Shown one piece after another: positions 143-63,305 of a DNA stretch of 64,000 nt (position 1 is the first letter of the stretch; each line of letters begins with the position of its first letter). Origin of the DNA: an archaeon (GTDB lineage: Archaea > Nanobdellota > Nanobdellia > Pacearchaeales > GW2011-AR1); the NCBI GenBank assembly GCA_018651605.1, contig JABIDS010000009.1:19966-83965 (forward strand), given 5' to 3'. A model generated the notes under the pieces. The model was not told the origin of the DNA, did no database searches, and saw only the letters and a program-made list of their open reading frames with translations. Made by a program: the position numbers and the translations under genes.

Positions 143-3100
143 ATGGTGTTGGAAAAAAAAGATGTGATTGGACATATAGAATTGACTTATATTTTGTTTG
201 TTCTTTTGTTTGTTTTGGTAGGGTTTTTGTTTAGTTTTGATTATGTTGTTGAGGAGTTTGTTAAGGAAGGTGTTGAGAGTGAGGGGGTTGGGGTTTTGGA
301 GGGTGGAGTGGAGGTTGGTGTTGGTTCTGAGGGTAGTGGTTTAGGGAGAGATGGTTTTGATGGTGATGAAAAGAAGAGTGGTTTTTTTAAGAGGATTTTT
401 GAGGGGTTGTTTGGTAAGGAGGAGGTTTTGTTTAGTCCTCCATCTATTGACTCTGTTTCTCCATTGAATGGATTATCAAAAACTGGTGAGGAACAAATAT
501 TTACTATAGAATATTCTGATCCTGAGGGATGGGAAGATTTAATCTATGGTTATGTTATTTTTGGAGCAGATTCATCTGATAGTAGGATTTTTTTAGAGTA
601 TAGGCATACTACAAAATTCGGATTAGTTAATGATAAAGGGATTATGACTTATCATTGTGATCCAGAATCAGATAATTTTTTATCTAATTCTTATGTAAAA
701 TTAGATTGTTCTAAATCTTTTGTTTCTGGTTCTGGAGATACTATGACTTTAACTTTAGCTTTAACATTTAAAGAGCCTTTTATTGGAAATTGGAAAATAC
801 TTTTAAGGACAAAAGATATTTCAGATAAAGATAAGGGTAAATGGGTGCCAATGGGGGATTGGGATGTTGAGGAAGGGGAGGTAATTATTGTTCCTGTTAA
901 ACCTCTTCCTCAAATGCGGGCACTTTATGGAGGGATTAATGAATTAAGAATTGGAGAGGGTGGGATAGATGCATACACTGATATGTTTAGGAGTTATGGA
1001 ATTAATACATTTATAACTAAACATTCTGGATTAAGAAATAATTTTATTTATGCTGATAGGTATCCAAATTCTCCTGAAAATTTTTATGAATCAATTTTAG
1101 ACCAGGCTGAGTGGGCTGAACAAAAAGGATTTGTTTTCTTTCCAATTATTGATTTTGTTCATAGGGTTAATGATCCTGATGATTTGGATGGGGATGAGAT
1201 TACAGTTTCTTCCATTACAGATAACTATGTTGTTTTTAGTGATGGTAGTGCGGGTTCACAAGTAACTCCTTTTGATGAGACTTATTGGGATTATTTAACT
1301 GATATTGCAGTGAGATTAGCAAGACTTTCAGAAAATTATGGCAAATATCGGGTTGATGGTTTAATGTTTGATTTTGAATTGTATAAAAGTGTAGAATTTG
1401 GAGAACCAAGAAAATTTGATAGGACTTTTGGTTTTGAAGATTCTACTTTTAATAATTATTTGGTTGATAGAGGTTTAGTTGAGTTGAATAGTCCTCCTAA
1501 GGAGTCTAATCAGAGGGCTGAAAGATATGATTGGTTAATAGATAATGGGAGATGGACTGATTATTATTCTTATCTTGAAGATACAATAGAAAAACTTGCA
1601 GAAAATATGAAGAGTGAGGTAAGAAAGGTTAATCCTGATTTCGTGTTAGGATTTTATCCTACGCCAGAGCCGCTTTATTTAATAGATATCCTTGATGGTT
1701 TTGGAAGTGAGGATGATCCTGCGGTTTTATTGGATACTTTTACTTATGCAATATCTTATATGGGATATTCTTATGGGGGAGAAGTAGTTCCAACAGGGAT
1801 TAGTCGTAATAGATTGCCTTCTGGTTATTTTGATGTAACTAAAAGATATCATCCTGAAAGAAATAAACCTGCGTATGCTTATTATCTTGGAGGAACAATA
1901 GCTGCTGCTTATGATCCTTTGGATTATGAAAATAAATTATATAATATTGGAAATGATGGAAATGGTTATTGGATTTATCAGGCTACTTTTTTTCTAAATG
2001 GTTTTAGGCCGGATTTACCGGGATGGGGATTACCTTGTAATAATGGGATTCGTTCTTTTAATTGTCCGAATGCTGATGCACATCAAGGTGCTGTTGACCA
2101 TTATTTGAATGAGATAAAAAATGCTAATTTAAGGTTGGGATGGGAGCCGTGTGTTCTTTCAAATGGAGGTGATGAAATATGTGATAATAAAGATAATGAT
2201 TGTAATGGAAAGGTTGATGATGGTGATTTGTGTGATAATGGAAATTATTGTGATGGTGTTGAAACTTGTTCTTCAGGAAGTTGTGTTGATGGTAGTGCTG
2301 TTGTATGTAATGATGGAATTGATTGTACTGATGATTTTTGTGATGAAGTAAATGATAAATGTGATGTAGATGAGTCTTCTTCTAGTTGTGGATGCCCTAA
2401 TGGTTTGGATTCAGAGTGTAGTAATGATGATGTTTGTGATGGTATTGAGAGTTGTAATACTGAAACTTTGGTTTGTATTGATGATGTGGATTTGGATTGT
2501 GATGGGAGTGATGTTTGTATTGATTATTCTTGTGACGCTGTTTTAGGTTGTCAAGAGAGTTTTAATAGTGCTGATTGTAATGATGGGGTTGATTGTACTT
2601 TGGGAGATAAATGTAATTTGGGTGATTGTTCTGGAACTCCTTATGATAGTGAGTGTGAATTTTTTTGGCAGTCTTGTAATCCTGTTTCTGGTTGTGAGCA
2701 GGCGAGTTGTAAGGATTGTAAGGATTGTGATACCTGGCTTGGTAGTTGTAGTTATAATGAATGTCATAATGAATGTGATTGGGGAGATGGTTGTTATTTT
2801 GAGAAGGATCCTTTGGGTGATGATTGTGTTCCATTAAGTGAAGGTTGTTCTTCTGTTGGTAGTTGTGGAGATTATTCTGTTGAGGAGTGTGTTAGTGATT
2901 TATGTGATAAGGCTCCTGTTGGTGGGAATGGTTGTGAGTTAGGTGAAAATAGGTTTGTAATTATGTCTTTTAGTCAGTATTTAGATGATTTTGCTGATGA
3001 ATGGCATCAATTAGTTCAACAGACATATATTCAAAATGAAAAAGTTATTAATAAGATATATATTGACGGTGTGTTAAGAAATACTGAAAAGTTTGAGGAT

Positions 3101-6100
3101 GCAGGAGGGTTGGTTAATAATTATGCTAATCTTAAGTTAGCTGTTGATTTGAATGGAGAAGTTGATGATGTTAAAATTTGGAATAGGGCTTTGAGTTCTA
3201 GTGAAGTTTTAGATGATAATAATGGTGTTTTGGTTTCTGATTCATTGATTGCACATTATAATTTTAATGAGGGTAGTGGGGTTGGAGTTGTGGATTCTGT
3301 AGGAGATAATGATGGTGTTCTTAATGGGGATGCAGTGAGAATTGATGGAGGAATTATTGATATTGGAACTTCAGGTTATATTGAAATTAAAGAAACTTCG
3401 GTGATGGATATTTCATTAACAGATGAGTATACTATTTCTGGTAGGTTTAAGTTATCTTCAGAAGAAACTGCAGGCAGTAGATATTTTTGGTCTGATTATT
3501 CTTGGATGAACTCAGGATTTATTGCTATAATTTTTCCTCGTGATCAGAAATTTTATTATTATAATACACATAAAGATTTGAGTGTTTGTGTTGATGCTAG
3601 TTATTGTGGGGATGGTGTTTGTGGTTTTGAGTCTGGAGAGAATTGTGGTGGTTGTGAGGAGGATTGTGGTTGTTCTGGTGAGACTCCTCATTGTTCTAGT
3701 GGGAATTGTGTTGAATGTGAGAGGCCTAGTGATTGTGATGATGGATTATATTGTAATGGTGTTGAAAGTTGTGTTGATGGAAGTTGTGTTGATGGAAGTG
3801 TTATTAATTTTGATGATAGAGTTGGTTGTACTATGGATAGTTGTGATGAAGTTAATGATGTGATTGTTAATGTTGTTGATGATGGTTTATGTCAGAATGG
3901 AGATTGGTGTGATGGTGTTGAGAGTTGTGACGCTGTTTTGGATTGTCAAGATGAGGTTGATCCTGATTGTAGTGATGTTTATAGTTGTAGTGTTGATAGT
4001 TGTAGTGAGGGGTCGGTAGTTGGGGATAATTTAGGTGTTTGTGATTATGATACTTCTGGTTGTGGATGTTTAGTTGATGGTGATTGTGATGATTCAAATG
4101 ATTGTACTGATGATTTTTGTAATGCTCAACGTGAATGTGATAAGACGAATAAGATTAATGGTTTTGTCTGTGATGATGGGAATTTATGTACTGAGGATGA
4201 TAAATGTTCTGTTGGGGTTTGTAGTGGTTCTGCTAGGGATTGTTCTTCTTTAAGTGATCAGTGTAATGATGGTGTTTGTGATTTAGATGATGGTTTGTGT
4301 AAGGCAGAGGTTAAGATTAATGGTTTGAGTTGTGATGATGGTTTGTTTTGTAGTGTTAGTGATGTTTGTGGGAATGGTGTTTGTGGTGGTTCTTCTAGAG
4401 ATTGTTCATCCTTTAATGATCAGTGTAATGATGGTGTTTGTGATGATGTTTTGAATTTGTGTAAGGCTGATGCTAAGGTTAATGGTTTGGATTGTGATGA
4501 TGAGGTTGATTGTACTGTTGAAGATAAATGTAGTTTTGGGGATTGTAAGGGTCGTGTTGATGATAATGAATGTGAAGATTGGGAATCTTGTAATCCTGTT
4601 TCTGATTGTGGGCAAGTAACTTGTTCAAGTTGTAAGGAATGTGATAGTTGGCTTAGTGGTTGTGATTATAATGAATGTCATAATGAATGTGATTGGGGGG
4701 ATGGATGTTATTTTGATTCTAAGTTTGGTGAGAATTGTGTTTCATTAGTTGATGGTTGTTCTTCTGTGGATAGTTGTGAGGATTATTCTAGTGAGGAATG
4801 TGTTAGTGATTTGTGTGGTAAGGCACCTTCTTCAAATGGGTGTGAACTTGATGGAGATGATTGTGTTGCTGTTAGTTATTGTGGGGATGGTGTTTGTGAT
4901 GTTGGTTCTGAAGATTGTAGTAGTTGTGTTGAAGATTGTAGTTGTTCTGGGAATGTTGATTTGAAGCAGTGTTCTAGTGGAAGTTGTGTTGAATGTTTGG
5001 AGGTTGATGATTGTGATGATGATAAGAGTTGTACTAATGATTTGTGTACAAATAATGTTTGTGTTTTTCCTGAGATTGATTCAGATGGAGATGGTTATGG
5101 TGCTTGTTTAGGTATAGGGTTTGATTGTGATGATGGGGACCGGGATGTTAATCCTGGGGTTGAAGAGAGTTGTAATAATGTTGATGATGATTGTGATGGT
5201 TTGACTGATGAGAGTTTGAGTCAGGCTACTAGTTGTGGTGTTGGTTTGTGTTTAGGTAATGTTGGTGTTGAAACTTGTTCTTTAGGTAGTTGGATTGGTG
5301 ATACATGTGATGAAGATGATGGTGCTGTTGATGAAGTTTGTAATAATGCCGACGATGATTGTGATGGTTCTACTGATGAGGGTTGTGCTTGTTCATTAGG
5401 TGATACTCAACCTTGTGGTAGTGATGTTGGAGAATGTGTTGCTGGTTCTCAAGTTTGTGATATTAATGGTATTTGGGGGGATTGTGTTGGTGGGCAAGGA
5501 CCTGTTGTTGAAATTTGTGATAATAAGGATAATGATTGTTCTAATGGGATTGATGATGGCTTGAGTAGGGGAACAAGTTGTGGGGTTGGGGCGTGTTCTG
5601 GGAATAGTGGGGTTGAAACTTGTTCTGCGGGTGTTTGGGGAAGTGATACATGTGATGATAAAGCTGGTGCTGTGAGTGATGCGAATTGTAATGGTGTTGA
5701 TGATGATTGTGATGGTTCTAAGGATGAAGATTATGTTTCGGTTGATACAAGTTGTGGGGTTGGGGAGTGTTTGGGGAATAGTGGTAGTTGGAGTTGTGTG
5801 AGTGGGAATGAGGTTGATAGTTGTGATGAATATGCTGGGAAGGTTGAAGAGAGTTGTGATGATGAAACTGGTTTTGATGGTTTGGATAATAATTGTGACG
5901 GTAATGTTGATTTAGATTGCGAATCTATTTGTGATAAAGATGGAGATGGTTATACAAATAATTTAATTTGTTTACCTGCTTGTTTAATTTATGGTTGGAA
6001 TTGTTTGAGTTTGGATTGTGATGATTCTAATGTAAATATAAATCCTAGAGAGGATGAATTATGTAATGGTATTGATGATGATTGTGATGGTGGAACAAGT

Positions 6101-7975
6101 GATGGAGTTGATGAGGATTGGTTTGGAGATGAGACAGGGTGTGGGGTTGGGGAGTGTGCTGCGGTTGGGGAACAATTATGTATAAATTCTCAAAAAACAA
6201 ATACATGTCAAGAAGGTGTTGCAGAGTTAGATGATAAGAGTTGTGATGGGAAGGATAATGATTGTAGTGGTGATGCTGATGAAGATTATATTTCTTTAGT
6301 TACTGATTGTGGTATTAATGAATGTTTGAGAATCGGGATAACATCATGTTCTAATGGAGAGGTTTTGGATTCTTGTGTTGTTGGAACTTCTGAACTAGAG
6401 ATTTGTGATGGTAAGGATAATGATTGTGATGGGAAATTTGATGAGGGTTGTGATTGTTTATTAGGTGATAGTCAACCTTGTGGGAGTGATGTTGGTGAAT
6501 GTGTTGTAGGTTTGCAGACTTGTAATATTAATGGTAATTGGGGAGATTGTGTTGGTGGTCAGGGTCCTGTAGAGGAGATTTGTGATGGTTTGGATAATAA
6601 TTGTGTTGGAGGGGTTGATGAAGGTGGAAATAGTTTATGTGATGATTCTATTGATTGTACTGATGATGTATGTAATGGTGTGAGTGAATGTTCTTATACT
6701 GAGAATCATGGTCTTTGTGAGAATAATTTATTTTGTGATGGAGAGGAAAGATGTAGTATTGATGAAGAGAAATGTATTTCTATAAAGACTCCTAATTGTG
6801 AGGATGTTTTTTCATGTACTGATGATTCTTGTGATGAGGGTTTGGATAAGTGTGTTAGTGATGAAAATTCTGGGAATTGTTTGACTGGGCAGATTTGCGA
6901 TGTTCTTAATTTTGTTGCTCCAACTGGTTGCGGTTATGTTGAGAATTGTGTTGATAAAGATGGTGATGGGTTGTATGATTATGATGAGAATTTTTGTTCG
7001 GAGGGTGTTGATGAGTGTTCTGGAACAAATAAGGGTTATTTTGTTAGGAATCCTTTTAAGTTGAATGATTATTTGCCTAAGGTTGGAAAGTTTAATATTC
7101 CTTCGGTGAATGCAGGAAATATTTTGAATTTTGAGAATTTTAGTGTTGAGTATAATGGGACTAAAATTAATTTTGTTGATAATGTTAGTTTGGTTAAAGT
7201 GAATGCTAGCGGTTGTTTTGAGGTTATTAATTTAAGTGAGATTGTTTTGTTTGAGGATGGTAAGTTGAGTGTGAATACGAGTTTGATGGATGGATTTGAT
7301 AAGCCTGCACTGTTGAAGTTTAGTGGAATTAATTTTGAGAACCCTCAGATTTATAGGGATGATGTTAAGTGTGTTGATTGCGAGATTATTAATTATTCTA
7401 AGGGAGAATTTTTAGAGGTCATGATTACTGGTTTTGTTTCTTATGATGTTAAGGAAGGGGCTTATTGTGGGGATGGTGTTTGTAATGGTGGTGATAGTTG
7501 TTCTAATTGCGTTGTTGATTGTGGGGTTTGTTCTGCAGGTGAGGGAGGTATTCTTGGAGGAGGTTCTGGGAGTTCTGGTGGTGGTGGTGGTGGGAGTCCT
7601 AGTGGTCCTAGTGGTCCAAGTGGAGGAAATCCTAGTGGTTTAAATATAAATCAAAGTAGTGTTGTAAATGTTTCTTATCCTAGTAGTTGTGTTGAAACTT
7701 GGTCTTGTAAGGATTGGAGTGAATGTAATGAGAGTGTTCAGAGAAGGGAGTGTTCGGATGTTAATGATTGTGGGAGTGAGGAGTATAAGCCTATTTTGGA
7801 GAAGGAATGTGTTGAGAAGAATAATGTTATAAAACTTGCTGTTGCATTTTTTATATCTTTTTTTGTTTCAGGAATAGTTGCTGTTTTGATTGTTGTTTAT
7901 TTTAAGATTAGGGATAGAAGGAAGAGTGTTATTAGAGATTTGCATAAGAATGGTTATCATGGGTTTAAGTGGTGA
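143..7975 (+). CDS. giant cysteine-rich cell-surface protein (2610 aa) with MopE-like CDxxDNDCDG metal-binding-type repeats, LamG/ConA-like blocks and C-terminal TM anchor
   Basis: Uninterrupted 7.8 kb ORF. N-terminal hydrophobic segment LTYILFVLLFVLVGFLFSF. Hundreds of Cys in repeated CxxxC and CDNKDNDCDG..DE units. Two blocks with a LamG-like signature (IYIDGVL...VDDVKIWNRALSSSEV). Gly/Ser/Pro linker GGGSGSSGGGGGGSPSGPSGPSGG. C-terminal TM LAVAFFISFFVSGIVAVLIVVYF followed by basic KIRDRRK. Confidence 0.85.
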   Translation: MVLEKKDVIGHIELTYILFVLLFVLVGFLFSFDYVVEEFVKEGVESEGVGVLEGGVEVGVGSEGSGLGRDGFDGDEKKSGFFKRIFEGLFGKEEVLFSPPSIDSVSPLNGLSKTGEEQIFTIEYSDPEGWEDLIYGYVIFGADSSDSRIFLEYRHTTKFGLVNDKGIMTYHCDPESDNFLSNSYVKLDCSKSFVSGSGDTMTLTLALTFKEPFIGNWKILLRTKDISDKDKGKWVPMGDWDVEEGEVIIVPVKPLPQMRALYGGINELRIGEGGIDAYTDMFRSYGINTFITKHSGLRNNFIYADRYPNSPENFYESILDQAEWAEQKGFVFFPIIDFVHRVNDPDDLDGDEITVSSITDNYVVFSDGSAGSQVTPFDETYWDYLTDIAVRLARLSENYGKYRVDGLMFDFELYKSVEFGEPRKFDRTFGFEDSTFNNYLVDRGLVELNSPPKESNQRAERYDWLIDNGRWTDYYSYLEDTIEKLAENMKSEVRKVNPDFVLGFYPTPEPLYLIDILDGFGSEDDPAVLLDTFTYAISYMGYSYGGEVVPTGISRNRLPSGYFDVTKRYHPERNKPAYAYYLGGTIAAAYDPLDYENKLYNIGNDGNGYWIYQATFFLNGFRPDLPGWGLPCNNGIRSFNCPNADAHQGAVDHYLNEIKNANLRLGWEPCVLSNGGDEICDNKDNDCNGKVDDGDLCDNGNYCDGVETCSSGSCVDGSAVVCNDGIDCTDDFCDEVNDKCDVDESSSSCGCPNGLDSECSNDDVCDGIESCNTETLVCIDDVDLDCDGSDVCIDYSCDAVLGCQESFNSADCNDGVDCTLGDKCNLGDCSGTPYDSECEFFWQSCNPVSGCEQASCKDCKDCDTWLGSCSYNECHNECDWGDGCYFEKDPLGDDCVPLSEGCSSVGSCGDYSVEECVSDLCDKAPVGGNGCELGENRFVIMSFSQYLDDFADEWHQLVQQTYIQNEKVINKIYIDGVLRNTEKFEDAGGLVNNYANLKLAVDLNGEVDDVKIWNRALSSSEVLDDNNGVLVSDSLIAHYNFNEGSGVGVVDSVGDNDGVLNGDAVRIDGGIIDIGTSGYIEIKETSVMDISLTDEYTISGRFKLSSEETAGSRYFWSDYSWMNSGFIAIIFPRDQKFYYYNTHKDLSVCVDASYCGDGVCGFESGENCGGCEEDCGCSGETPHCSSGNCVECERPSDCDDGLYCNGVESCVDGSCVDGSVINFDDRVGCTMDSCDEVNDVIVNVVDDGLCQNGDWCDGVESCDAVLDCQDEVDPDCSDVYSCSVDSCSEGSVVGDNLGVCDYDTSGCGCLVDGDCDDSNDCTDDFCNAQRECDKTNKINGFVCDDGNLCTEDDKCSVGVCSGSARDCSSLSDQCNDGVCDLDDGLCKAEVKINGLSCDDGLFCSVSDVCGNGVCGGSSRDCSSFNDQCNDGVCDDVLNLCKADAKVNGLDCDDEVDCTVEDKCSFGDCKGRVDDNECEDWESCNPVSDCGQVTCSSCKECDSWLSGCDYNECHNECDWGDGCYFDSKFGENCVSLVDGCSSVDSCEDYSSEECVSDLCGKAPSSNGCELDGDDCVAVSYCGDGVCDVGSEDCSSCVEDCSCSGNVDLKQCSSGSCVECLEVDDCDDDKSCTNDLCTNNVCVFPEIDSDGDGYGACLGIGFDCDDGDRDVNPGVEESCNNVDDDCDGLTDESLSQATSCGVGLCLGNVGVETCSLGSWIGDTCDEDDGAVDEVCNNADDDCDGSTDEGCACSLGDTQPCGSDVGECVAGSQVCDINGIWGDCVGGQGPVVEICDNKDNDCSNGIDDGLSRGTSCGVGACSGNSGVETCSAGVWGSDTCDDKAGAVSDANCNGVDDDCDGSKDEDYVSVDTSCGVGECLGNSGSWSCVSGNEVDSCDEYAGKVEESCDDETGFDGLDNNCDGNVDLDCESICDKDGDGYTNNLICLPACLIYGWNCLSLDCDDSNVNINPREDELCNGIDDDCDGGTSDGVDEDWFGDETGCGVGECAAVGEQLCINSQKTNTCQEGVAELDDKSCDGKDNDCSGDADEDYISLVTDCGINECLRIGITSCSNGEVLDSCVVGTSELEICDGKDNDCDGKFDEGCDCLLGDSQPCGSDVGECVVGLQTCNINGNWGDCVGGQGPVEEICDGLDNNCVGGVDEGGNSLCDDSIDCTDDVCNGVSECSYTENHGLCENNLFCDGEERCSIDEEKCISIKTPNCEDVFSCTDDSCDEGLDKCVSDENSGNCLTGQICDVLNFVAPTGCGYVENCVDKDGDGLYDYDENFCSEGVDECSGTNKGYFVRNPFKLNDYLPKVGKFNIPSVNAGNILNFENFSVEYNGTKINFVDNVSLVKVNASGCFEVINLSEIVLFEDGKLSVNTSLMDGFDKPALLKFSGINFENPQIYRDDVKCVDCEIINYSKGEFLEVMITGFVSYDVKEGAYCGDGVCNGGDSCSNCVVDCGVCSAGEGGILGGGSGSSGGGGGGSPSGPSGPSGGNPSGLNINQSSVVNVSYPSSCVETWSCKDWSECNESVQRRECSDVNDCGSEEYKPILEKECVEKNNVIKLAVAFFISFFVSGIVAVLIVVYFKIRDRRKSVIRDLHKNGYHGFKW

Positions 7976-7989
7976 TTTGGTTGGGTTGG

Positions 7990-8370
7990 ATTTTCCACCA
8001 CCCACGGAAAGCCGGTTTCACCTTTCCCTTTCCGTGCCGTTGCAGTCTTAAAAAGTTGTTAGAGGGTTTATTTATTCAGAGGAGTTTTCTTTGGTTGTTG
8101 TTAAGAGATTGGTTTGGTTATAGATGGGAAAGGTGTTTTGTAGAGAGTTTAAGATTTAGGAGATTCAGAGAATTAAAAATTCTCTGACTTAGAAAAATAA
8201 GCTATAAGCCCTATTATTTTTCTAATTTCAGTATTTAGCGGAGCGCCCTGACTAAGTCGGGTGCGAGAGCGATATAAAATAAGTTATGAGCTGAAGGAGA
8301 ATGAATCATGGATGGAATAAATGAACCGAAAGAGAATGAATCTATGCGAGCGATAGTGAATGAATCTAAT
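7990..8370 (+). repeat. interspersed repeat family A, copy 1 (structured intergenic element, ~380 bp, contains 9-bp-arm palindrome and an inverted GAC-loop hairpin)
   Basis: Shares blocks (cGGAAAgccg; caCTTTCCCTTTCC; ttgttagaGGGTTTATTTATTCAGAGgag; ATAAGCCC; aaaTAAGTTATGAGC; GAATGAATCTAtGCGAGCG) with copies at 11735-11885 and 56345-56630. Palindrome cagagaatt/aattctctg at 8166-8188. Segment gcggagcgccctgactaagtcgggtgcgagagcg resembles the reverse complement of the hairpins at 45560 and 46799. Confidence 0.7.
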
Positions 8371-8377
8371 CTTTTAA

Positions 8378-11734: not shown

Positions 11735-11885
11735 GGGATCAATTCCCCTGGCGGAAAGCCGTGCTTCGCACTTTCCCTTTCCTCCCTTTTGTCTTGGTAA
11801 ATTGTTAAAGGGTTATTTTATTCAGAGAATCTATAGATTCTCTGACTCGTAAAAACGAGCCATAAGCCCCATCGTTTTTCCGATG
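11735..11885 (+). repeat. interspersed repeat family A, copy 2 (short version, with perfect 10-bp-arm palindrome)
   Basis: Blocks gcGGAAAGCCG, CACTTTCCCTTTCC, ttggtaaattgttaaaGGGTTATTTTATTCAGAG, palindrome cagagaatct/agattctctg (11823-11844), then gactcgtaaaaacgagccATAAGCCCC. Same order as in copy 1. Confidence 0.7.
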
Positions 11886-19361: not shown

Positions 19362-19470
19362 GGGGTGTTGGGAAGGTTAAGTAACTTGGTTCGCTTTTGC
19401 TCACAACTTATTTTATGGTTCAACTGCCGGCTTTCGCCTGGCAGTTTCTCTAATTTTTCTTAATATTGTG
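19362..19470 (+). ncRNA. candidate structured ncRNA / repeat (family B, copy 1): GGGGTGTT…TTGGTTCGC…hairpin aactgcc[GGCTTTCGCC]tggcagtt + T-tract
   Basis: ~85% similar to 27330-27470. Hairpin 19422-19446 has fully compensatory stem changes relative to the second copy, with a conserved loop GGCTTyCGCC. Followed by taattttt. Confidence 0.5.
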
Positions 19471-23773: not shown

Positions 23774-23829
23774 AGATTAATTTATTTGAAACCAAAGATT
23801 AAAAAAGGCTTTTTTTCTTATTAATTTAT

Positions 23830-23904
23830 GGCTTGTTAGCTCAGTCTGGTTAGAGCACTAGACTCTTAATCTAGGTGTCGGGAGTTCAAATCTCCCACAG
23901 GCCA
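23830..23904 (+). tRNA. tRNA-Lys (anticodon CTT), 75 nt, no encoded CCA
   Basis: Manual cloverleaf: acceptor GGCTTGT/ACAGGCC; D arm GCTC-AGTCTGGTTA-GAGC; anticodon arm CTAGA-CTCTTAA-TCTAG; T arm GGGAG-TTCAAAT-CTCCC; discriminator A. Confidence 0.85.
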
Positions 23905-23975
23905 TTTATATCTTAACACTAAATCTAAGATGTAGAAAATTATGAAGGATTAAATACATTTAGATATTTTGTAGC

Positions 23976-25462: not shown

Positions 25463-25603
25463 GTAAAGTTAGTACTATCAACTGTTTAAGATAATTTTTT
25501 CTAAAATAGACACTGTGTCATATATAATCCAAAACTCTTAATCCAACACATATATCAATAAGAAAATTAAAAAACCATAAATACCTCATAAATTCATACT
25601 CAT

Positions 25604-25678
25604 GGCTTGTTAGCTCAGTCTGGTTAGAGCACTAGACTCTTAATCTAGGTGTCGGGAGTTCAAATCTCCCACAGGCCA
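25604..25678 (+). tRNA. tRNA-Lys (anticodon CTT), second identical copy
   Basis: 75/75 identical to 23830-23904. Confidence 0.85.
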
Positions 25679-25782
25679 TTTATGGCAGAGATTTTCACTC
25701 CAAGGAGTTTCCATAAAGGATGACTCAAAGGTTATTTGAGCCGCAAATCTCATCAGGCCATTTAAATTAATGTTAATAATTA

Positions 25783-26229: not shown

Positions 26230-26231
26230 TA

Positions 26232-26273
26232 CTCTTAATCTAAGTGTCGGGAGTTCAAATCTCCCACGGGCTA
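26232..26273 (+). other. tRNA-Lys 3'-half fragment (anticodon loop to acceptor 3' strand; att-like remnant)
   Basis: ctcttaatctaagtgtcgggagttcaaatctcccacgggcta vs tRNA ctcttaatctaggtgtcgggagttcaaatctcccacaggcca. Preceded by a ~40-bp direct repeat (cactgtgYcatatataatccaaWactcttaatc) also present at 25507-25548. Confidence 0.75.
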
Positions 26274-26294
26274 TTTTTATTTTTAGAAATATTA

Positions 26295-27329: not shown

Positions 27330-27470
27330 GTAGCGGGGTGTTACTACTTGTTTTTTGTTGGATTTTGGGAGATTGGTTCGCCTTCGGCTCACGGCTTATT
27401 TTATGTCAGATTGGATGGCTTCGCCAACCCAATCTTCTAATTTTTTTGATAGTGTGAATATTTTATCTAG
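27330..27470 (+). ncRNA. candidate structured ncRNA / repeat (family B, copy 2): hairpin agattgg[ATGGCTTCGCCAAC]ccaatct + T-tract
   Basis: Collinear with 19362-19470: GGGGTGTT; TTGGTTCGCCTTCGGCTCAC; CTTATTTTATG; hairpin 27408-27435 with covarying stem; ctaattttttt. Confidence 0.5.
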
Positions 27471-35601: not shown

Positions 35602-38112
35602 ATGCCTCCTAAGAAAAAAGTAAACCCTGAAGCTGTTGAGCAGAAAGAATTTCGGGTTTTTGATCCTGCGAATGTGAAGAAGAGTGTTGAAGTTGCTGCT
35701 AAGCCTAAGCCATCTGTTGAGGATTTGCAAACTGTTGAAAAAGTTGGAGATGCTGAAAAGATAGAGAAGGAATTGAAGAAACGATCATCTACTGGAAAGA
35801 AGAAGGTTAGTAAAAGAAAGAAAAAACCTGCTACGAAGAAGGCTGTGAAGAAACCTGCGGTGTTTAAGGAAAAGGCTTTGAAGAAAGATGGTTATGTTTT
35901 TGTTGTGACTGAAAAGCCTCAGGCGGCTGATAAGATTGCTGCGGCGCTTTCTGAAGGTAAGGCGCGGAAGGTTGCGAATCGGGCAAAGGTTTCATATTAT
36001 GAATTTGAGAGGGGGGGTAAGAGGGTTGTTGTTGGATGTGCTGTTGGACATTTGTTTACTATTTCACAGAATGTTAAGGGGGCAGATTATCCTATTTTTG
36101 ATATTGGGTGGTATCCTAATTCTGCTGTTAAGAGGGGTGTTGATTTTACTCGGAAGTATTTTGATGTTATTAAGAAATTAGTTACTGGGGCGAGTGAGAT
36201 TGTTATTGCTACGGATTTTGATGTTGAGGGAGAGGTTATTGGTTATACTGTTATGAAATATATTGCGAATCAGAAGGATGCTTCGCGGATGAAGTTTAGT
36301 TCTTTGACTGCTGGTGAGTTGCAGGATTCTTTTGATAATCGGGCGAATCATATTGAATGGGGGCAGGCGATTGCTGGGGAGACTCGGCATTTTTTGGATT
36401 GGTTGTATGGTATTAATTTGAGTCGGGCTTTGATGAATTCTATTAAGACTACTGGTAAATTTGCTGTGATGAGTATTGGGCGTGTTCAAGGTCCTGCGTT
36501 GCATATGATTGTTGAGAAGGAGAAACAGATTCAAGCGTTTAAGCCAACTCCTTATTGGCAAATTTTTTTAGAAGTGAATGATGGTAAGAATAAATTAGAA
36601 GTTAAACATAATCGAGATATTACTAAGAAGGAAGAGTTGGGGAAGTTTGAGAAATTGAAGGGTGGGAAAGGTGTTGCGAAGACTACGAAGAAGAGTCAAG
36701 TGATTACTCCGCCTGCTCCGTTTGATTTGACTTCGTTGCAGACTGAGGCGTATAAGTTTCATGGGATTACTCCTGTTAATGCTTTGTCTGTTGCGCAAAA
36801 ATTGTATTTAGCTGGTTTGATTTCTTATCCTAGAACTTCTTCACAGAAAATTGGAGATTTGAAAAGTGCTGAAAAAGTTTTGAAGCTTCTTGAGAAAAAT
36901 CATAGTTCTCTTGTGAAGGAAGTTAGCCGTAAAGTTCCTGTTGAGGGAAATAAGTCTGACCCTGCGCATCCTGCGATTATTCCGACTGGGACTCATAGTA
37001 ATAGGTTGAGTGATTATGATGAGAAGATTTATAATTTGATTGTTAAGAGATTTATTTCTTGTTATTGTGCAGATGCTGAGTTGGAGAATAAGAGAGTTAA
37101 TGTTGATGTTTCAAGTGGTTTGAAGTTTGCTGCTCGTGGAATGGAGGTTAAGAAAAGTGGTTGGATGAAGGTTTATCCTACTAAGATGGAGGCAAAGGAG
37201 TTGAAGGATATGGATGGAGAGGTTAATATTGATGAAGTTAAGATTGAGGAGAAGGAGACTAAGCCTCCGAATCGGTTTTCTCCTGCGTCTATTGTGACTG
37301 CTCTTGAGAAAAAGAATTTAGGGACAAAGGCTACTCGTGCGAATATTATTGAGACACTTTATGATAGGAATTATGTTAAGGGGAAATCTATTACTGCTAC
37401 TGAGTTGGGGATTCGATTGATTGATTCTTTGAAAAAATATTCTCCTGTGATTATTGAAGAGGAATTGACTCGTGAGATTGAAAAAGATATGGATAATATT
37501 CGGAGTTCTAAGCATGATTTGGATGTTAAAAAGGGGAAGGTTATTGGTAAGGCTGAAGATGCTTTGACTAAAATTTCTAAGGATTTTAAAAAGAATGAGG
37601 TTGTGATTGGGAAGGAGTTGCGAGGGGCGAATGAGGCGGCGTGGGCGCAGGAAAAAGAAGATAATAAATTATTGAAGTGTACTGGTTGTGGTAAAGGTTT
37701 TTTGTCTCTTAGATATACGCCAAGATTTAAGAGTTATTTTGTTGGATGTGAAACTTATCCTGATTGTACTCAGACTTATCCTTTGCCTTCTGGATGTGTT
37801 GTTAAAAAAGTTGAAGGTAAGATGTGTGAGGAATGTGGTTGGCCAATGTTAATTAGGTATAAGCCAAGTAAGAGGCCATGGGTTTTTTGTTTTAATCCTA
37901 AATGTCCAACGAGGTTGGAGTTGGATTTGAGTGGGAAGGCGAAGAAGAAGGGGGCGAGGTATGTTGGTGGGAAAACGAAAACTGCGGAGAGTAAGGGTGT
38001 GGCTGATATAGGTGTTAAAGAAAAAGGGGAGGATGTTGGGGTTGAGAAGGGTGATGGTGTTGGGGTTGGGAGGGGTGGAGATGTTGAGGTTAAAAAGGTT
38101 AAGGAGAAGTGA
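35602..38112 (+). CDS. topA: DNA topoisomerase IA with Lys-rich N-terminal extension and C-terminal zinc ribbons
   Basis: Toprim block VIATDFDVEGEVIGY. Type IA core. C-terminal CTGCGKG…CETYPDC…CEECGW…CFNPKCP zinc ribbons. Gly/Val-rich tail. Confidence 0.85.
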   Translation: MPPKKKVNPEAVEQKEFRVFDPANVKKSVEVAAKPKPSVEDLQTVEKVGDAEKIEKELKKRSSTGKKKVSKRKKKPATKKAVKKPAVFKEKALKKDGYVFVVTEKPQAADKIAAALSEGKARKVANRAKVSYYEFERGGKRVVVGCAVGHLFTISQNVKGADYPIFDIGWYPNSAVKRGVDFTRKYFDVIKKLVTGASEIVIATDFDVEGEVIGYTVMKYIANQKDASRMKFSSLTAGELQDSFDNRANHIEWGQAIAGETRHFLDWLYGINLSRALMNSIKTTGKFAVMSIGRVQGPALHMIVEKEKQIQAFKPTPYWQIFLEVNDGKNKLEVKHNRDITKKEELGKFEKLKGGKGVAKTTKKSQVITPPAPFDLTSLQTEAYKFHGITPVNALSVAQKLYLAGLISYPRTSSQKIGDLKSAEKVLKLLEKNHSSLVKEVSRKVPVEGNKSDPAHPAIIPTGTHSNRLSDYDEKIYNLIVKRFISCYCADAELENKRVNVDVSSGLKFAARGMEVKKSGWMKVYPTKMEAKELKDMDGEVNIDEVKIEEKETKPPNRFSPASIVTALEKKNLGTKATRANIIETLYDRNYVKGKSITATELGIRLIDSLKKYSPVIIEEELTREIEKDMDNIRSSKHDLDVKKGKVIGKAEDALTKISKDFKKNEVVIGKELRGANEAAWAQEKEDNKLLKCTGCGKGFLSLRYTPRFKSYFVGCETYPDCTQTYPLPSGCVVKKVEGKMCEECGWPMLIRYKPSKRPWVFCFNPKCPTRLELDLSGKAKKKGARYVGGKTKTAESKGVADIGVKEKGEDVGVEKGDGVGVGRGGDVEVKKVKEK

Positions 38113-38120
38113 ACGGTTGT

Positions 38121-38228
38121 TGCGGTGAAGATTTAATTGGTTGCGGTCTCCCAAGCCTGACTTTGTCAAGGCTCTCCGACTTGCAGTTTTGATAATGTTG
38201 AATATTTTATCATGAGGTTATGAGTGGT
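38121..38228 (+). repeat. hairpin repeat family C, copy (stem agcc-TGAC-UUU-GUCA-aggct) followed by conserved aatattttatcatgaggttatgagtggtt box
   Basis: ~80% similar over ~90 bp to 41040-41140, with compensatory stem substitutions. The TTTTATC box could be a TATA element. Confidence 0.65.
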
Positions 38229-41039: not shown

Positions 41040-41140
41040 CATGGGCTGGAGGGTTATTGCTGGCTCCCGAGTCCGACTTCGTCAGGACTCTCCACCTTGC
41101 ATATTGAAATTGTGAATATTTTATCGTGAGGTTATGATAG
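41040..41140 (+). repeat. hairpin repeat family C, copy (stem gagtcc-GAC-UUC-GUCA-ggactc) + gaatattttatcgtgaggttatga box
   Basis: Pairs with 38121-38228 to bracket the four-gene cassette. Hairpin 41069-41090. Confidence 0.65.
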
Positions 41141-44241: not shown

Positions 44242-45501
44242 TTATTTCCAGCTAACTTTTCCTCCATTGAAAATCATATAAAATAGTGAGACTATCCACC
44301 AGAATCCGAATAATACTGCGAAGAATATAAAGAATAATGGAAGGTTGATTGCTAATCCTGAGACTTTTCCTAATTTTTTTGATGCATAGAAAAGATAGGC
44401 TAGAATTATTAAAATGAAGATTATGATGAATATGAAAATTGTGTTTGTGAATAGTAGGAATGCGAGTCTTTCCCAGAAGTAGTAATTTATGTTCAGAAGG
44501 TTTCCTAAGTCGAAGTTAATGCTCTTTAGGAAGTTTATTTCTTTTCCAATGTCTAGGATTGTTTTTATGAAGAAAAATAATGTGATGAATACTGCGAAGA
44601 ATATGCTTATCCATGCGATTGGTAGAACGAAGATTCCCATGTCTCCGTAATCTTTGCTGAATAGTTTTTTGTATTTCCGCATGTTTTTCATTAGTCCGAT
44701 GTACCATCTTCTCCTTTGTTTTAGTAGGTGGGAGAATTTGTTGGGGGCTATTGTGTAGGCAGGGGATTCTGGAGAGTTTTCAATTTTGTATTGATAATAT
44801 TGGATTCTCATTGCTAATTCTAAATCTTCTGTTATGTTTTCTGTTTCATATCCTCCATGTTCTTTAAAGAAACTTGCTCGATATGCTGAAAATGCTCCAG
44901 GAGTTATGTGAATTGCGTTTAGGATTGCAAAAGTTTTTCTTAAGAACAAACCTATTACATATTCAATGTATTGAACTCTTTGAAGGATGTTTTTTGGTTT
45001 GTGTATAACAATTGCTGGAGAGACGCTCATTATTTGAGGGTCTTTGAAATATTTTACCATGTTTTTTAAACTGTATGGTTCAACAAAAGTATCTGCATCC
45101 ATGCTTACTATTATTTCACCTTTGGCTTGAGAGATTCCTAGATTTAGTGCGTATCCTTTTCCTTGTTGTTTTTCTGTGAAAATTTTTATTTTATTTTTTC
45201 CTTTAAAATCTTTTTTGAATTCTTTTGCTAACTTTAATGTTTGGTCTGTGCTTGAATTATCTATTACAATTATTTCTAGTTTTTCTTCTGGGTAATCTGA
45301 TTCTAGAATTGATTGCATGGTTGCCTTTATGCTTTTTTCTTCGTTGTATGCAGGGATTAGTATGGTTACTGTTGGGGATTGTTTGTTTGTGTATGGTTTT
45401 TGTTTTAGATTTATTGCTGAAATGTAAGTGAGGACATAGAATGAGGTTGCTATGAGTCCTAGGTAAATCGAGGTGTATATTATTAGGGTTATGAATGTCA
45501 T
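44242..45501 (-). CDS. family 2 glycosyltransferase, membrane-integrated processive type (cellulose/chitin-synthase-like)
   Basis: N-terminal TM. DxD-type VIDNSSTD and MDADT. Q(R/Q)xRW motif LKQRRRWYIG. C-terminal multi-TM region. Confidence 0.8.
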   Translation of the reverse strand: MTFITLIIYTSIYLGLIATSFYVLTYISAINLKQKPYTNKQSPTVTILIPAYNEEKSIKATMQSILESDYPEEKLEIIVIDNSSTDQTLKLAKEFKKDFKGKNKIKIFTEKQQGKGYALNLGISQAKGEIIVSMDADTFVEPYSLKNMVKYFKDPQIMSVSPAIVIHKPKNILQRVQYIEYVIGLFLRKTFAILNAIHITPGAFSAYRASFFKEHGGYETENITEDLELAMRIQYYQYKIENSPESPAYTIAPNKFSHLLKQRRRWYIGLMKNMRKYKKLFSKDYGDMGIFVLPIAWISIFFAVFITLFFFIKTILDIGKEINFLKSINFDLGNLLNINYYFWERLAFLLFTNTIFIFIIIFILIILAYLFYASKKLGKVSGLAINLPLFFIFFAVLFGFWWIVSLFYMIFNGGKVSWK

Positions 45502-45534
45502 TATTTAATCTAGGTGGTTGTGTTTTAAAGGATT

Positions 45535-45640
45535 GTGGGGGTGGGGTTGTGTCGCTCTCGCGCCTGGACAAGTCCAAGGCGCTCCGCTATTGTATACTGA
45601 AATCTTGTTAAAGTGTATCTTTATGGAGATGAGTTTTCTT
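45535..45640 (+). repeat. hairpin repeat family C-related element (gtggggttgtGTCGCTCTCGCgcctggacaagtccaaggcgCTCCGCTattg)
   Basis: Prefix and suffix shared with 46780-46830. Imperfect GC-rich hairpin 45560-45582. Sits in the intergenic region downstream of the GT2 gene. Confidence 0.55.
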
Positions 45641-45705
45641 TTGTTGATTATATGTTTGTTATACAAATATTTTTAAAGTGATTGTATTAGGGAATTACAT
45701 ATACT

Positions 45706-46098
45706 ATGGAAAATTTATCTCCTGAACAAATTCAATATATTAGAAGTAAGGGTTTTATGATGAAAAAATGTTCTTCTGTTAAAAATCGTTTGTCCTATTT
45801 AGCTTTGGGTGGGAAATTGGAGGAAGTTGGTGAAATGGGAATTGTTTATCAGCCTTTTGGAAGTTTTGTATGTTATGGTACAATGTATATTCATGGGGAG
45901 AAACCAATGACTTCTATAGATGAACTTGTAAACTTAATTGAAACTACTGTAACTAATCCTGTTGCTGTTCAGAGTGAATTCCTTCGTGCAGTTCAGTTTG
46001 AATCAGTGAAAAAAGCTATGGAGAGTCCTATTAAAATAAATGTAAATCATGGGTCTTGGAGAGAAGTTGCAGAAGCACTTATGGATAAATATAGTTAA
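45706..46098 (+). CDS. hypothetical protein
   Basis: 130-aa ORF. Confidence 0.45.
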   Translation: MENLSPEQIQYIRSKGFMMKKCSSVKNRLSYLALGGKLEEVGEMGIVYQPFGSFVCYGTMYIHGEKPMTSIDELVNLIETTVTNPVAVQSEFLRAVQFESVKKAMESPIKINVNHGSWREVAEALMDKYS

Positions 46099-46114
46099 TT
46101 ATTGGTTTTGGTTT

Positions 46115-46933
46115 TTATTCATCTTCGTTTTCATCATCATCCTCAGGAACTATTTCGCTTGTTCCATCTGCTTTTTTTTGTAAGTGGAAATAGTCGAAGA
46201 AGTTGTCGCTTAATTTTAGTTCTTTGGTGTGTCCGATTCTTTTTGCTATTACTAATCCTGTTTCTATGAAATGTTTGATGTGTTCGTATGCTTTGTTTCC
46301 TCTGATGTTTATTATTACTGATTGTTTTACTGGTTGTTTGTATGCAAGGACTGCGAGTGTTTCTTGTTCGGCTTTTGTGAATTCTACGTTTCCTGTTGCG
46401 AGTTTGTTGATTAGTCCGATATATTCTTCTTTGACATCCATTTTGTATTTGTTTTTTTTGTTTACAATTTGGATTGAAGAGGTGTTTTGTGAGTATTGGT
46501 TTGTGAGTTTTTCTAGAAGTTCTCTTAGCATTAATGGATTAATGTCTGTTAGCATGATTAGTTCTTGTATTGTAAGGTAACGAGCTGAGAGAAAAAGTGC
46601 GGCTTCTATTTTCTTTAGGTTTTCTGTTTGGTCGAGTTGGTCGAGTTCTTGAGCTGTGGTGGAGGTGAGATGTTCTGAAGTTGTTGGTGAAGGGGTTATG
46701 GGGGTTGATGGTAAAGGGGTTATGTGGGTTTTTGAGGTTGATGGTGAAGGGGTTATGGGGGTTGATGGTAAAGGGGTTATGTGGGTTGCGTCGCTCTCGC
46801 CGATGACTTCGTCAATCGGCTCCGCTGTTGCAGTCTTAGTATCTGTTAGATTTTTATCGTTTTGTTGGTGGGTTTCTTTTGTTTGTTGATTTAGGGGATT
46901 TTCTTTTGGGGGGTTATTCTCTTCTTTTTCCAT
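46115..46933 (-). CDS. scpB: ScpB-like segregation/condensation protein (tandem wHTH); N-terminal ~100 codons overlap a GC-rich repeat element and may not be coding
   Basis: IEAALFLSARYLTIQELIMLT…EQETLAVLAYKQPVKQSVIINIRG fits the ScpB double wHTH. The N-terminal region is Thr/Pro/Ser low complexity, encoded by a 2x57-bp tandem repeat plus the hairpin at 46799-46820. Confidence 0.6.
   Translation of the reverse strand: MEKEENNPPKENPLNQQTKETHQQNDKNLTDTKTATAEPIDEVIGESDATHITPLPSTPITPSPSTSKTHITPLPSTPITPSPTTSEHLTSTTAQELDQLDQTENLKKIEAALFLSARYLTIQELIMLTDINPLMLRELLEKLTNQYSQNTSSIQIVNKKNKYKMDVKEEYIGLINKLATGNVEFTKAEQETLAVLAYKQPVKQSVIINIRGNKAYEHIKHFIETGLVIAKRIGHTKELKLSDNFFDYFHLQKKADGTSEIVPEDDDENEDE
46650..46850. 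repeat. GC-rich tandem repeat (2 x ~57 bp: ggtgaaggggttatgggggttgatggtaaaggggttatgtgggtt) followed by family C hairpin gccgat-GAC-UUC-GUCA-atcggc
   Basis: Direct visual repeat. GC content well above local background. Hairpin prefix gtgggttgcGTCGCTCTCGC shared with 45540-45560. Confidence 0.65.
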
Positions 46934-47012
46934 GATAGAATTAGTGAGATGGAAGTTTTAAAGGTTTTGTAATTCAGAGAAAAAGTAAACTTCTGCTTTC
47001 TAATCAAAGGAC

Positions 47013-56344: not shown

Positions 56345-56630
56345 CCCTCCCCACGAAAATCCGTTCCTTGCGTCACTTTCCCATTTTCTTCCTTTTGTTT
56401 TGGTAAGTTGTTAGAAGGTTTATTTTTTCAGAGGAGTTTTTCTTTTTGGTTTCGTTTGAGTGCTAAGTTGGTTTTGTGTAGATTTTAAAAGTTGGGAGAT
56501 TTTAAGAAAATTGGGTTAACGAAGTTTCCTAATTTGACATAAAATAAGTTATGAGCGGAGCGAATGAAACTATGGGAGAAGGATAAGTGAGTGAAGCGAA
56601 TGAATCTAAGCGAGCGGAGCGAGCGTTGAA
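56345..56630 (+). repeat. interspersed repeat family A, copy 3
   Basis: Shares cacGAAAAtccg; CACTTTCCCaTTttcttCC; ttggtaagTTGTTAGAAGGTTTATTTTTTCAGAGGAGTTTTTC; gttttgtgtagatttt…gggagatt; ATAAAATAAGTTATGAGCGGAGCG; GAATGAATCTAAGCGAGCG with copy 1, in the same order. Confidence 0.7.
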
Positions 56631-56644
56631 CTATTAATTTTTAT

Positions 56645-63071: not shown

Positions 63072-63146
63072 TGAGCCTGTAGCTCAGCCAGGTTAGAGCA
63101 CTACTCTGATAAGGTAGGGGTCCCAAGTTCAAATCTTGGCAGGCTC
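63072..63146 (+). tRNA. tRNA-Ile (anticodon GAT), 75 nt
   Basis: Acceptor GAGCCTG/CAGGCTC; D arm GCTC-AGCCAGGTTA-GAGC; anticodon arm CTACT-CTGATAA-GGTAG; T arm CCAAG-TTCAAAT-CTTGG; discriminator A. Confidence 0.85.
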
Positions 63147-63305
63147 ATAAACTAAACCAAGATTTGAAAATCCAGAAAATTTTTAATTTTCTGGTCCATT
63201 CAAAAACCTATGGGTTTTTTGAAGGTCTTGACAGGATCATAAACTAAACCAAGATTTGAAAATCCAGAAAATTTTTTGAAGGTCTTGACAGGATCATAAA
63301 ATGCT
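63135..63305 (+). repeat. direct repeats of the tRNA-Ile 3' end plus downstream ~40 bp (cttgRcaggMtcataaactaaaccaagatttgaaaatccagaaaatttt x2, third truncated copy)
   Basis: aatcttggcaggctcataaactaaaccaagatttgaaaatccagaaaatttt (63132-63183) vs ggtcttgacaggatcataaactaaaccaagatttgaaaatccagaaaatttt (63225-63276), and again ggtcttgacaggatcataaa (63283-63302). Confidence 0.7.

Follow-up and report, generated by a model that had tools for sequence, protein, structure and literature searches.

The 64,000-nt stretch of archaeal contig JABIDS010000009.1 analysed here (the window, with positions counted from its first letter) carries a gene for the chromosome-maintenance protein ScpB into whose 5′ end a GC-rich hairpin repeat is inserted in frame. 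The scpB open reading frame (ORF; 46115..46933, (-) strand) encodes 272 aa, of which residues 108-254 match Pfam SMC_ScpB (PF04079) with E = 6.2e-32 and 110.8 bits against a cutoff of 27.4. Its 2130 homologs are named ScpB in metagenome-assembled genomes (MAGs) of Pacearchaeota and Nanoarchaeota. Homologs of ScpB and of the topoisomerase I encoded in the window are labelled Pacearchaeota, Nanoarchaeota or 'archaeon', and an archaeal aRF1 adjoins.

Direct reading of the sequence gives GTCGCTCTCGC-GCCTGGACAAGTCCAAGGC-GCTCCGCT at 45551-45588 and GTCGCTCTCGC-CGATGACTTCGTCAATCG-GCTCCGCT at 46790-46826, two sites whose shared motif had been pointed out in a preliminary description of this DNA. The motif is borne out: the gapped pattern GTCGCTCTCGC-hairpin-CTCCGCT has 2 matches, against 0.00 expected from 100 dinucleotide-preserving shuffles. 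The two sites (c1 and c2, respectively) lie 1239 bp apart and have a common 5′ flank, GGGTTGYGTCGCTCTCGC, that is, GGGTTG(T/C)GTCGCTCTCGC, identical at 17/18 positions. The hairpin core of c1 (45545..45592, (-) strand) stands in the spacer between a glycosyltransferase gene and a 130-aa ORF, where 15 nt separate its end from the TATA box (45523-45529) of the glycosyltransferase gene, which lies downstream. The core of c2 (46784..46830, (-) strand; 58.8-63.9 bits in the searches below) falls inside scpB, as had been described, at codons ~36-50 (TAEPIDEVIGESDAT). It is adjoined by a 57-bp tandem repeat (46676..46787, (-) strand; codons 49-86) that encodes (K)THITPLPSTPITPSPSTS twice; the earlier count of two ~57-bp units agrees with Tandem Repeats Finder, which reports period 57, 2.0 copies and 96% matches. 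The GC enrichment recorded for the region is likewise real, with 0.51 over codons 34-88, 0.33-0.36 in the remainder of the gene and 0.326 in the window, and both the tandem repeats and the hairpin contribute to it. The N-terminus is not 'pure Thr/Pro/Ser' as had been stated, since its first 33 residues are instead N/Q/K/E-rich and AT-rich; residues 1-88 include the peptides NLTDTK and TATAEPIDEVIGESDATHITPLPSTPITPSPSTSK.

The scpB start codon and its in-frame insert

Comparison with orthologs places the hairpin and the tandem units inside a single insert. At locus L140, which encodes the nearest ortholog that is free of the insert (P0002, 87% identity), TTTAAAA and a further 22 nt precede ATG GAA AAA GAA CAC CTA (MEKE|HLTS), whereas the window reads TTTAAAA, 22 nt, ATG GAA AAA GAA, an 84-codon insert and then CAT CTC. 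The insert thus spans 46670..46921 on the (-) strand (codons 5-88, 84 aa) and is predicted to be disordered. In 118 of 120 orthologs a short tail (ME.E...) leads straight into EH[IL][TS]S.TA.E[LI]DE...ENLKKIEAALF, without the element; in the window the conserved EHLTS.TAQELD peptide follows immediately after the insert. The Thr/Pro repeats are accordingly not common to ScpB orthologs, and a protein search with the insert peptide returned zero matches.

These comparisons bear on the proposal, made in the preliminary description, that the true ScpB start lies downstream near LKKIEAALF, the element and repeats then forming a 5′ leader or intergenic DNA. The atypical composition of the region (GC 0.51 versus 0.33), its low complexity and a Pfam domain that begins only at residue 108 would suit such a misannotation. 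However, in-frame ATG, GTG or TTG triplets occur only at codons 1, 127, 135 and 165, so that none is available between codons 1 and 127, and codon 127 is deep inside the conserved domain. The peptide retained in orthologs right after the insert, EHLTSTTAQELD...ENLKK, also opens the first ScpB helix: in an AlphaFold2 model built from a 40-sequence alignment, residues 1-89 have a predicted local distance difference test score <50 and no secondary structure, and a helix (91-116) starts at residue 91 and leads into the ScpB fold. The ATG, the MEKE peptide and the TATA box are collinear with those of the insert-free ortholog. Reading frame statistics agree, with the ScpB frame the only one open in two species: in the window insert it has 0 stops and the other frames 6 and 4, and in the corresponding locus of a second species (L003) the counts are 0 versus 4 and 16. 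Finally, two other samples yielded contigs that match the window at 99.9% identity over 7.3 kb but have one 57-nt unit and not two, and the one-unit strain protein has 253 aa (P0001), a difference of exactly 19 codons and hence a multiple of three. We regard a downstream start as highly improbable.

The start at 46933 is therefore best read as ancestral and of leaderless type, because its TTTAAAA box (46956..46962, (-) strand), 22 nt upstream of the ATG, matches in sequence and spacing both the insert-free ortholog and the genome-wide promoter pattern, (A)AACCTTTAAAA ~22 nt before ATGs. The sequence comparisons make it almost certain that the scpB copy belongs to the genuine coding sequence and that translation from the ancestral ATG carries it into the protein as a disordered extension. 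The other explanation offered in the preliminary description, a repeat exapted as a disordered N-terminal extension, holds insofar as the repeat is multi-copy, in frame and predicted to be disordered; 'exapted' is too strong, since nothing points to a function gained by the extension.

A hairpin family with covarying stems

The two sites had been taken for a pair of sister copies. Both are real copies, but they are not a pair, as the window holds five. A relaxed pattern search gave a third copy (8238-8272) on the strand opposite to c1 and c2, and searching with a covariance model of four copies added those at 41063-41095 and 38148-38178. In a second species (P0003; loci L003 and L004), whose ScpB is 79% identical to that of the window, the N-terminal tail carries a sixth copy at the same place. 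A second covariance model, built from all six copies, recovered exactly five in the window, at 45-60 bits, and nothing else below E = 1. Across the covariance models the five window copies scored 45-64 bits and the next match <11 bits, and the further copies (three in the window and the one in the other species) had E-values of 1e-10 to 1e-19.

Four of the window copies are intergenic, and three of these lie 24-99 nt past stop codons. Copy c3 (8233..8279, (+) strand) separates two convergent genes, a Rad50-like gene whose stop is 99 nt away and a 2610-aa ORF whose stop is 258 nt away, and its stem has one G.U pair on the (+) strand. Copy c4 (41056..41100, (-) strand), also between convergent genes, follows a RadB/Rad51-like stop by 24 nt and that of a 133-aa ORF by 252 nt, while c5 (38140..38184, (-) strand) is 28 nt past the topoisomerase I stop. 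Together, c4 and c5 bracket four co-oriented genes. The core measures ~47 nt, with up to ~85 nt common to some copies; some are evidently longer than the core, since c4 and c5 share 83 nt at 81% identity (38141-38223 and 41057-41137) and c2 has part of this extension.

On the scpB sense strand, the consensus begins with an outer helix (G-C, C-G) and a purine internal loop of 5′-GGA-3′ opposite 5′-GRGA-3′ (3 x 4), and continues inward with a 6-bp stem, a bulged U, and GAC paired to GUC across an NAA triloop. Copy c2, for example, reads AGCGGA-GCCGAU-U-GAC-GAA-GUC-AUCGGC-GAGAGCGA. All six stems differ (GCGCCU, GCCGAU, GCGCCC, GAGUCC, GAGCCU and GAGUUC) and pairing is kept in 6/6 copies. In the six-copy alignment (A7), standard pairs make up 97% of cells and 6/11 pairs show both-sided changes. 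None of 500 shuffles reached the observed pairing or covariation score, and sliding the partner columns by 1-3 positions lowers pairing to 21-35%. The outer helix covaries too, with U-A in c5. An additional 3-bp outer helix can be drawn in 4/6 copies (UGC/GCA in c2, c4 and c5; UAU/AUA in c3), an extension that we propose tentatively from sequence reading and folds.

Conservation is much stronger in the flanks and unpaired bases than in the stem. Copies c1 and c2 have near-identical flanks, whereas 4/6 stem pairs and the tip differ, which is unlike a recent plain duplication and is the signature of a folded nucleic acid read through its unpaired parts. For this reason, we give next to no credence to the view that there is no element at all, with c1 and c2 a local segmental duplication and the other copies chance similarities. 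Direct repeats 1.2 kb apart with the most similar flanks of the family would fit that view, but three more copies lie 5-38 kb away and one in another species, and stems that differ while flanks are conserved are the opposite of neutral decay after duplication. Judged from sequence, fixed unpaired parts combined with a free stem point to protein recognition of a folded single strand, which may be RNA or single-stranded DNA. Each of the three non-Watson-Crick cells in register is G.U when read on the scpB-sense strand and would be A.C on the other, a weak hint that the scpB-sense strand is the one that folds (n = 3 cells, two-sided chance ~0.25). With the bulged U followed by GA, one of the three core frames always contains TGA; both scpB copies, in the window and in the second species, use the same open frame, giving AE..D.V..ES.

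Several known structures were considered and rejected. A kink-turn bound by L7Ae, in which a 3-nt bulge and then tandem sheared G.A pairs separate two helices, is a misfit in geometry, since the 3 x 4 internal loop (GGA/GRGA) has an asymmetry of 1 and not 3, although tandem G.A pairs by the stem are possible. An archaeal bulge-helix-bulge intron, which has a 4-bp helix between two 3-nt bulges on opposite strands, is excluded in that the unpaired stretches face each other and the sole bulge is 1 nt; moreover, the insert keeps frame, which an intron need not do. C/D-box small RNAs and the archaeal origin recognition box were rejected on geometry or motif grounds. We also dropped an element-borne promoter, because the A/T-rich box 17-27 nt upstream of the hairpin departs from the clear genomic promoter pattern.

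Distribution, known repeat systems and origin of the copies

The family is absent from the sampled DNA of relatives. In five relatives (L140, L141, L144, L146 and L149; 78-87% protein identity), ~60 kb of non-redundant DNA yielded no copy, an outcome with a Poisson probability of ~0.009 at window density, and none lies at the topoisomerase I 3′ end of the 87% relative. Across 185,579 species-representative genomes, a strict pattern to which c2, c3 and the L003 copy conform occurred only at nine chance sites, all of them GC-rich and bacterial, and in no archaeon. A degenerate pattern returned 120 loci from metagenomes, all with GC of 0.49-0.73 and chance matches, the pattern being too degenerate, and of the viral contig scans one produced six chance matches and the other none. 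Against Rfam 15, only three tRNAs in the window reach the gathering score, and nothing at E<=10 overlaps the copies in 45450-46950. The copies coincide with breaks in synteny, since the gene order around them is not that of relatives: in L141 scpB directly neighbours the glycosyltransferase gene, and the RadB-like gene has the orientation opposite to topoisomerase I in three relatives. The 130-aa ORF (45706-46098, (+) strand) between scpB and the glycosyltransferase gene is on the strand opposite to scpB and has no Pfam match; in relatives the two genes are adjacent or split by other, unrelated ORFs, and this spacer is a hot spot of gene turnover.

Placement past gene ends raises the possibility that the hairpins are a host signal rather than selfish DNA, namely protein-binding RNA or single-stranded DNA hairpins that act in 3′-end formation, transcript stabilisation or insulation, with the scpB copy accidental or secondary. 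The strong conservation of the unpaired nucleotides, the full covariation of stems in every copy and the confinement of G.U pairs to one strand all accord with such a role, as do the positions of c3, c4 and c5 downstream of stops, those of c3 and c4 between convergent genes, and the existence of other C-GAA(A)-G-capped GC-rich spacer hairpins, some with the flank of c3, GAYATAAAATAAG. However, orientation is inconsistent: the G.U strand is antisense to topoisomerase I at c5, c1 is upstream of a promoter and c2 is in a coding region. Its absence from the topoisomerase I 3′ end of the 87% relative and from all sampled relatives, and the lack of an Rfam match even at the relaxed threshold, also count against a host signal, and archaeal termination has no hairpin requirement. 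We consider a host signal, the main rival reading, possible, on the doubtful side.

Bacterial repetitive extragenic palindromic sequences (REPs) offer one point of comparison. They are 20-40-nt GC-rich imperfect palindromes, mostly downstream of genes or between convergent genes and occasionally in replication or repair genes (PMC3733652), and REPs and their paired REPIN forms are mobilised by REP-associated tyrosine transposases (RAYTs), with recognition of the folded single strand as the proposed mechanism (PMC3733652, PMC3337134). The family described here is likewise a short GC-rich imperfect palindrome with a conserved mismatch or bulge, multi-copy and mainly extragenic past gene ends. 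In contrast to REPs, which form inverted pairs and have one consensus, it consists of single copies with variable stems. No GTAG or CGTC tag abuts the stem, the flanks being AGCGGA and GAGAGCGA (TCGCTCTC and TCCGCT on the other strand); c2 alone contains CGTC, at a distance of 5 nt from its stem. Among ~25 window ORFs scanned, none is a RAYT or IS200-type gene. To our knowledge, REP/RAYT systems have been described only in bacteria.

A second comparison is with Rickettsia palindromic elements (RPEs; Ogata et al. 2000), which, as summarised in PMC10969869, are bacterial, ~100-150 bp long and encode a conserved peptide. Shared features are short palindromic repeats in a small, reduced and AT-rich genome, lineage restriction, and presence both in spacers and in frame within conserved genes, here the scpB of the window and of the second species. 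In both systems a peptide segment is added without destroying the protein, which we take as a functional analogy only, with no kinship in sequence expected. The core here is ~47 nt and the host an archaeon, and these differences in size and host place the copies outside the RPE family; moreover, the variable stem makes for a mostly variable peptide, and 1/5 window copies is intragenic. In the literature searched, REP- or RPE-like elements are not described for DPANN archaea.

The ends of IS200/IS605 elements and of their non-autonomous derivatives, palindrome-associated transposable elements (for example in Haloquadratum; as cited in PMC10969869), have in common with our copies a subterminal imperfect hairpin, an extrahelical T, strand specificity and lack of target duplication. 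The IS200/IS605 hairpins act as single-stranded DNA, as those described here may also do. For the copies, however, no distinct left and right ends, nearby TnpA or TnpB, or defined target tetranucleotide could be demonstrated. A miniature inverted-repeat transposable element was rejected because inverted repeats at the termini are lacking apart from the hairpin, and because the junctions offer only an ambiguous AGAA.

Integron attC sites, or other tyrosine-recombinase sites that fold as single strands and mark gene cassettes, share more of the architecture: the outer helix is followed by an unpaired loop at the centre and by an inner helix that has one conserved extrahelical base, and the stem varies in sequence, so that structure rather than sequence defines the site. 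Such sites have been reported in Nanoarchaeota MAGs (PMC9668308), and the four co-oriented genes bracketed by c5 and c4 would fit such a role. Even so, the complementary R′′/R′ boxes (RYYYAAC / GTTRRRY) are lacking and the flanking GCAAC motifs are direct and not inverted. The copies are dispersed without an array, they flank housekeeping genes (topoisomerase I, RadB, Rad50 and ScpB), and no integrase is found among the scanned window ORFs. In addition, attC sites are longer than the ~47-nt core. An attC-like identity is therefore very unlikely.

Overall, we favour, with a probability of about 0.5, a lineage-restricted REP/RPE-like structured repeat that would be non-autonomous, would have spread within its lineage and would be tolerated in the hypervariable tail of ScpB. 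By analogy with the systems above, an enzyme may recognise the fixed unpaired features of the folded single strand and leave the 6-bp stem free in sequence. The non-autonomous repeat would then spread in an AT-rich Pacearchaeota-like (DPANN) lineage, with copies persisting where insertion is harmless, namely spacers, the ends of genes and a disordered protein tail. One copy lies in the disordered ScpB N-terminal tail, where it stays in frame and is almost certainly translated from the ancestral ATG, and the adjoining 57-bp (19-codon) unit would grow and shrink by slippage. Bacterial REPs and Rickettsia palindromic elements are thought to behave likewise (PMC3733652, PMC3337134 and PMC10969869). 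This selfish-repeat reading and a host signal are not mutually exclusive; bacterial REPs are both.

Several observations weigh against a mobile repeat. Although 1-4 of the 6 stem positions vary from copy to copy, each of the six copies retains its full structure and none in a decayed state was found, a pattern closer to purifying selection on every copy, as expected of a host function, than to neutral selfish DNA. The scpB copies of the window and of P0003 may be orthologous rather than independent insertions, which would argue for constraint at the level of the locus. No transposase or other mobilising enzyme was detected among the ~25 window ORFs scanned against Pfam, terminal inverted repeats are absent beyond the hairpin, and the scpB insert junctions show only the ambiguous AGAA with no clear target duplication. 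No clean filled/empty pair was obtained for any intergenic copy; the 56-kb paralog of the c3 region is readable either as an empty site or as a degenerate hairpin, and given this ambiguity we dropped it as an 'empty site' for c3. The census covers 64 kb of the source genome.

A bolder version of the favoured repeat, an undescribed structure- and strand-specific DPANN system recognised by a dedicated archaeal enzyme or binding protein, REP/RAYT- or attC-like and of independent origin, seems unlikely to us. If true, such a system would shape the ends of genes, occupy rearrangement breakpoints and introduce new stretches of peptide into essential proteins of chromosome maintenance; a cognate enzyme, if it exists, would represent a new structure-specific DNA or RNA recognition system, and a large full-genome family with such an enzyme would heighten the significance of the repeat. 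DPANN genomes are very small, and repeats and mobile DNA in them are little studied. An intact, narrow-lineage repeat read through in scpB illustrates concretely how a repeat can lengthen a protein terminus in an archaeon. In practice, GC-rich islands in AT-rich DPANN genes are not necessarily annotation errors, and a conserved promoter and start codon provide a check on N-terminal low-complexity extensions.

Tandem expansion, strand skew and other repeats in the window

The 57-nt repeat is an in-frame length polymorphism, because near-identical strains have one unit versus two. A comparable expansion is found in topoisomerase I, where a 24-bp tandem of 3.2 units (38024-38098) encodes a Gly/Val/Glu-rich C-terminal tail ending in GEDVGVEKGDGVGVGRGGDVEV. 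Orthologs at 78-80% identity are without the 24-bp expansion, and the 87% ortholog has a different, longer expansion with no hairpin downstream. Because the topoisomerase I tail thus expands the native C-terminus without a hairpin, tandem repeats reflect general slippage in this lineage and are not a fixed part of the element. We accordingly rejected G-rich tandems as an element component, the topoisomerase I tail being native terminal sequence expanded on the G-rich strand.

The (+) strand has G>C across the window whatever the gene orientation, with GC skew positive in nearly every 4-kb block and mostly between +0.2 and +0.68; only three stretches fall close to zero or slightly below it. AT skew is negative window-wide, regardless of gene orientation. 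Low-complexity tails are Pro/Thr/Ser/Gln-rich on (-) genes such as scpB and Gly/Val/Glu-rich on (+) genes, a strand-dependent composition explained by the persistence of GC skew irrespective of gene orientation.

A second, larger family of intergenic repeats occupies 8005-8222, 11752-11880 and 56405-56616, with pieces 76-93% identical, and c3 is inside one member. This family has a covarying hairpin of its own, CAGAGAATC-TATA-GATTCTCTG versus CAGAGAATT-TTT-AATTCTCTG, as well as a GGAAAGGGAAAG...GGCTTTCCG hairpin. The other GC-rich spacer hairpins capped by C-GAA(A)-G are located at 19405-19448 (-), 27391-27434 (-) and ~56510-56560 (+); they are followed by (U)GA(C)CAUAAAAUAAG, a 3′ flank also present on c3, and are possibly a wider class of spacer hairpins in the source genome. 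Short imperfect repeats of AGATTCATTC type occur at 8290-8375 (-), just past the Rad50-like stop, and at 56550-56640 (-) in the paralogous 56-kb region.

Two tRNA loci are also repeated. Two perfectly identical 82-nt copies at 23828-23909 and 25602-25683, which contain tRNA-Lys(CTT), are 1774 bp apart, and 26231-26283 is a third, partial copy of the tRNA-Lys 3′ half, ~91% identical. These repeats bracket a TrmB-like regulator gene and unannotated ORFs and look like att-type scars of one or two elements integrated into tRNA-Lys. The 3′ end of tRNA-Ile(GAT) and the sequence just beyond it are repeated downstream (63134-63184 with 63226-63276, and 63215-63243 with 63272-63300; 96-100% identity), a possible integration scar. 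At the opposite end of the window, the 2610-aa ORF (143-7975, (+) strand) is Cys/Asp/Gly-rich with a C-terminal membrane anchor and presumably encodes a giant surface protein; it has many internal repeats, among them 2562-2917 with 4479-4828 and a 162-bp tandem at 4150-4547.

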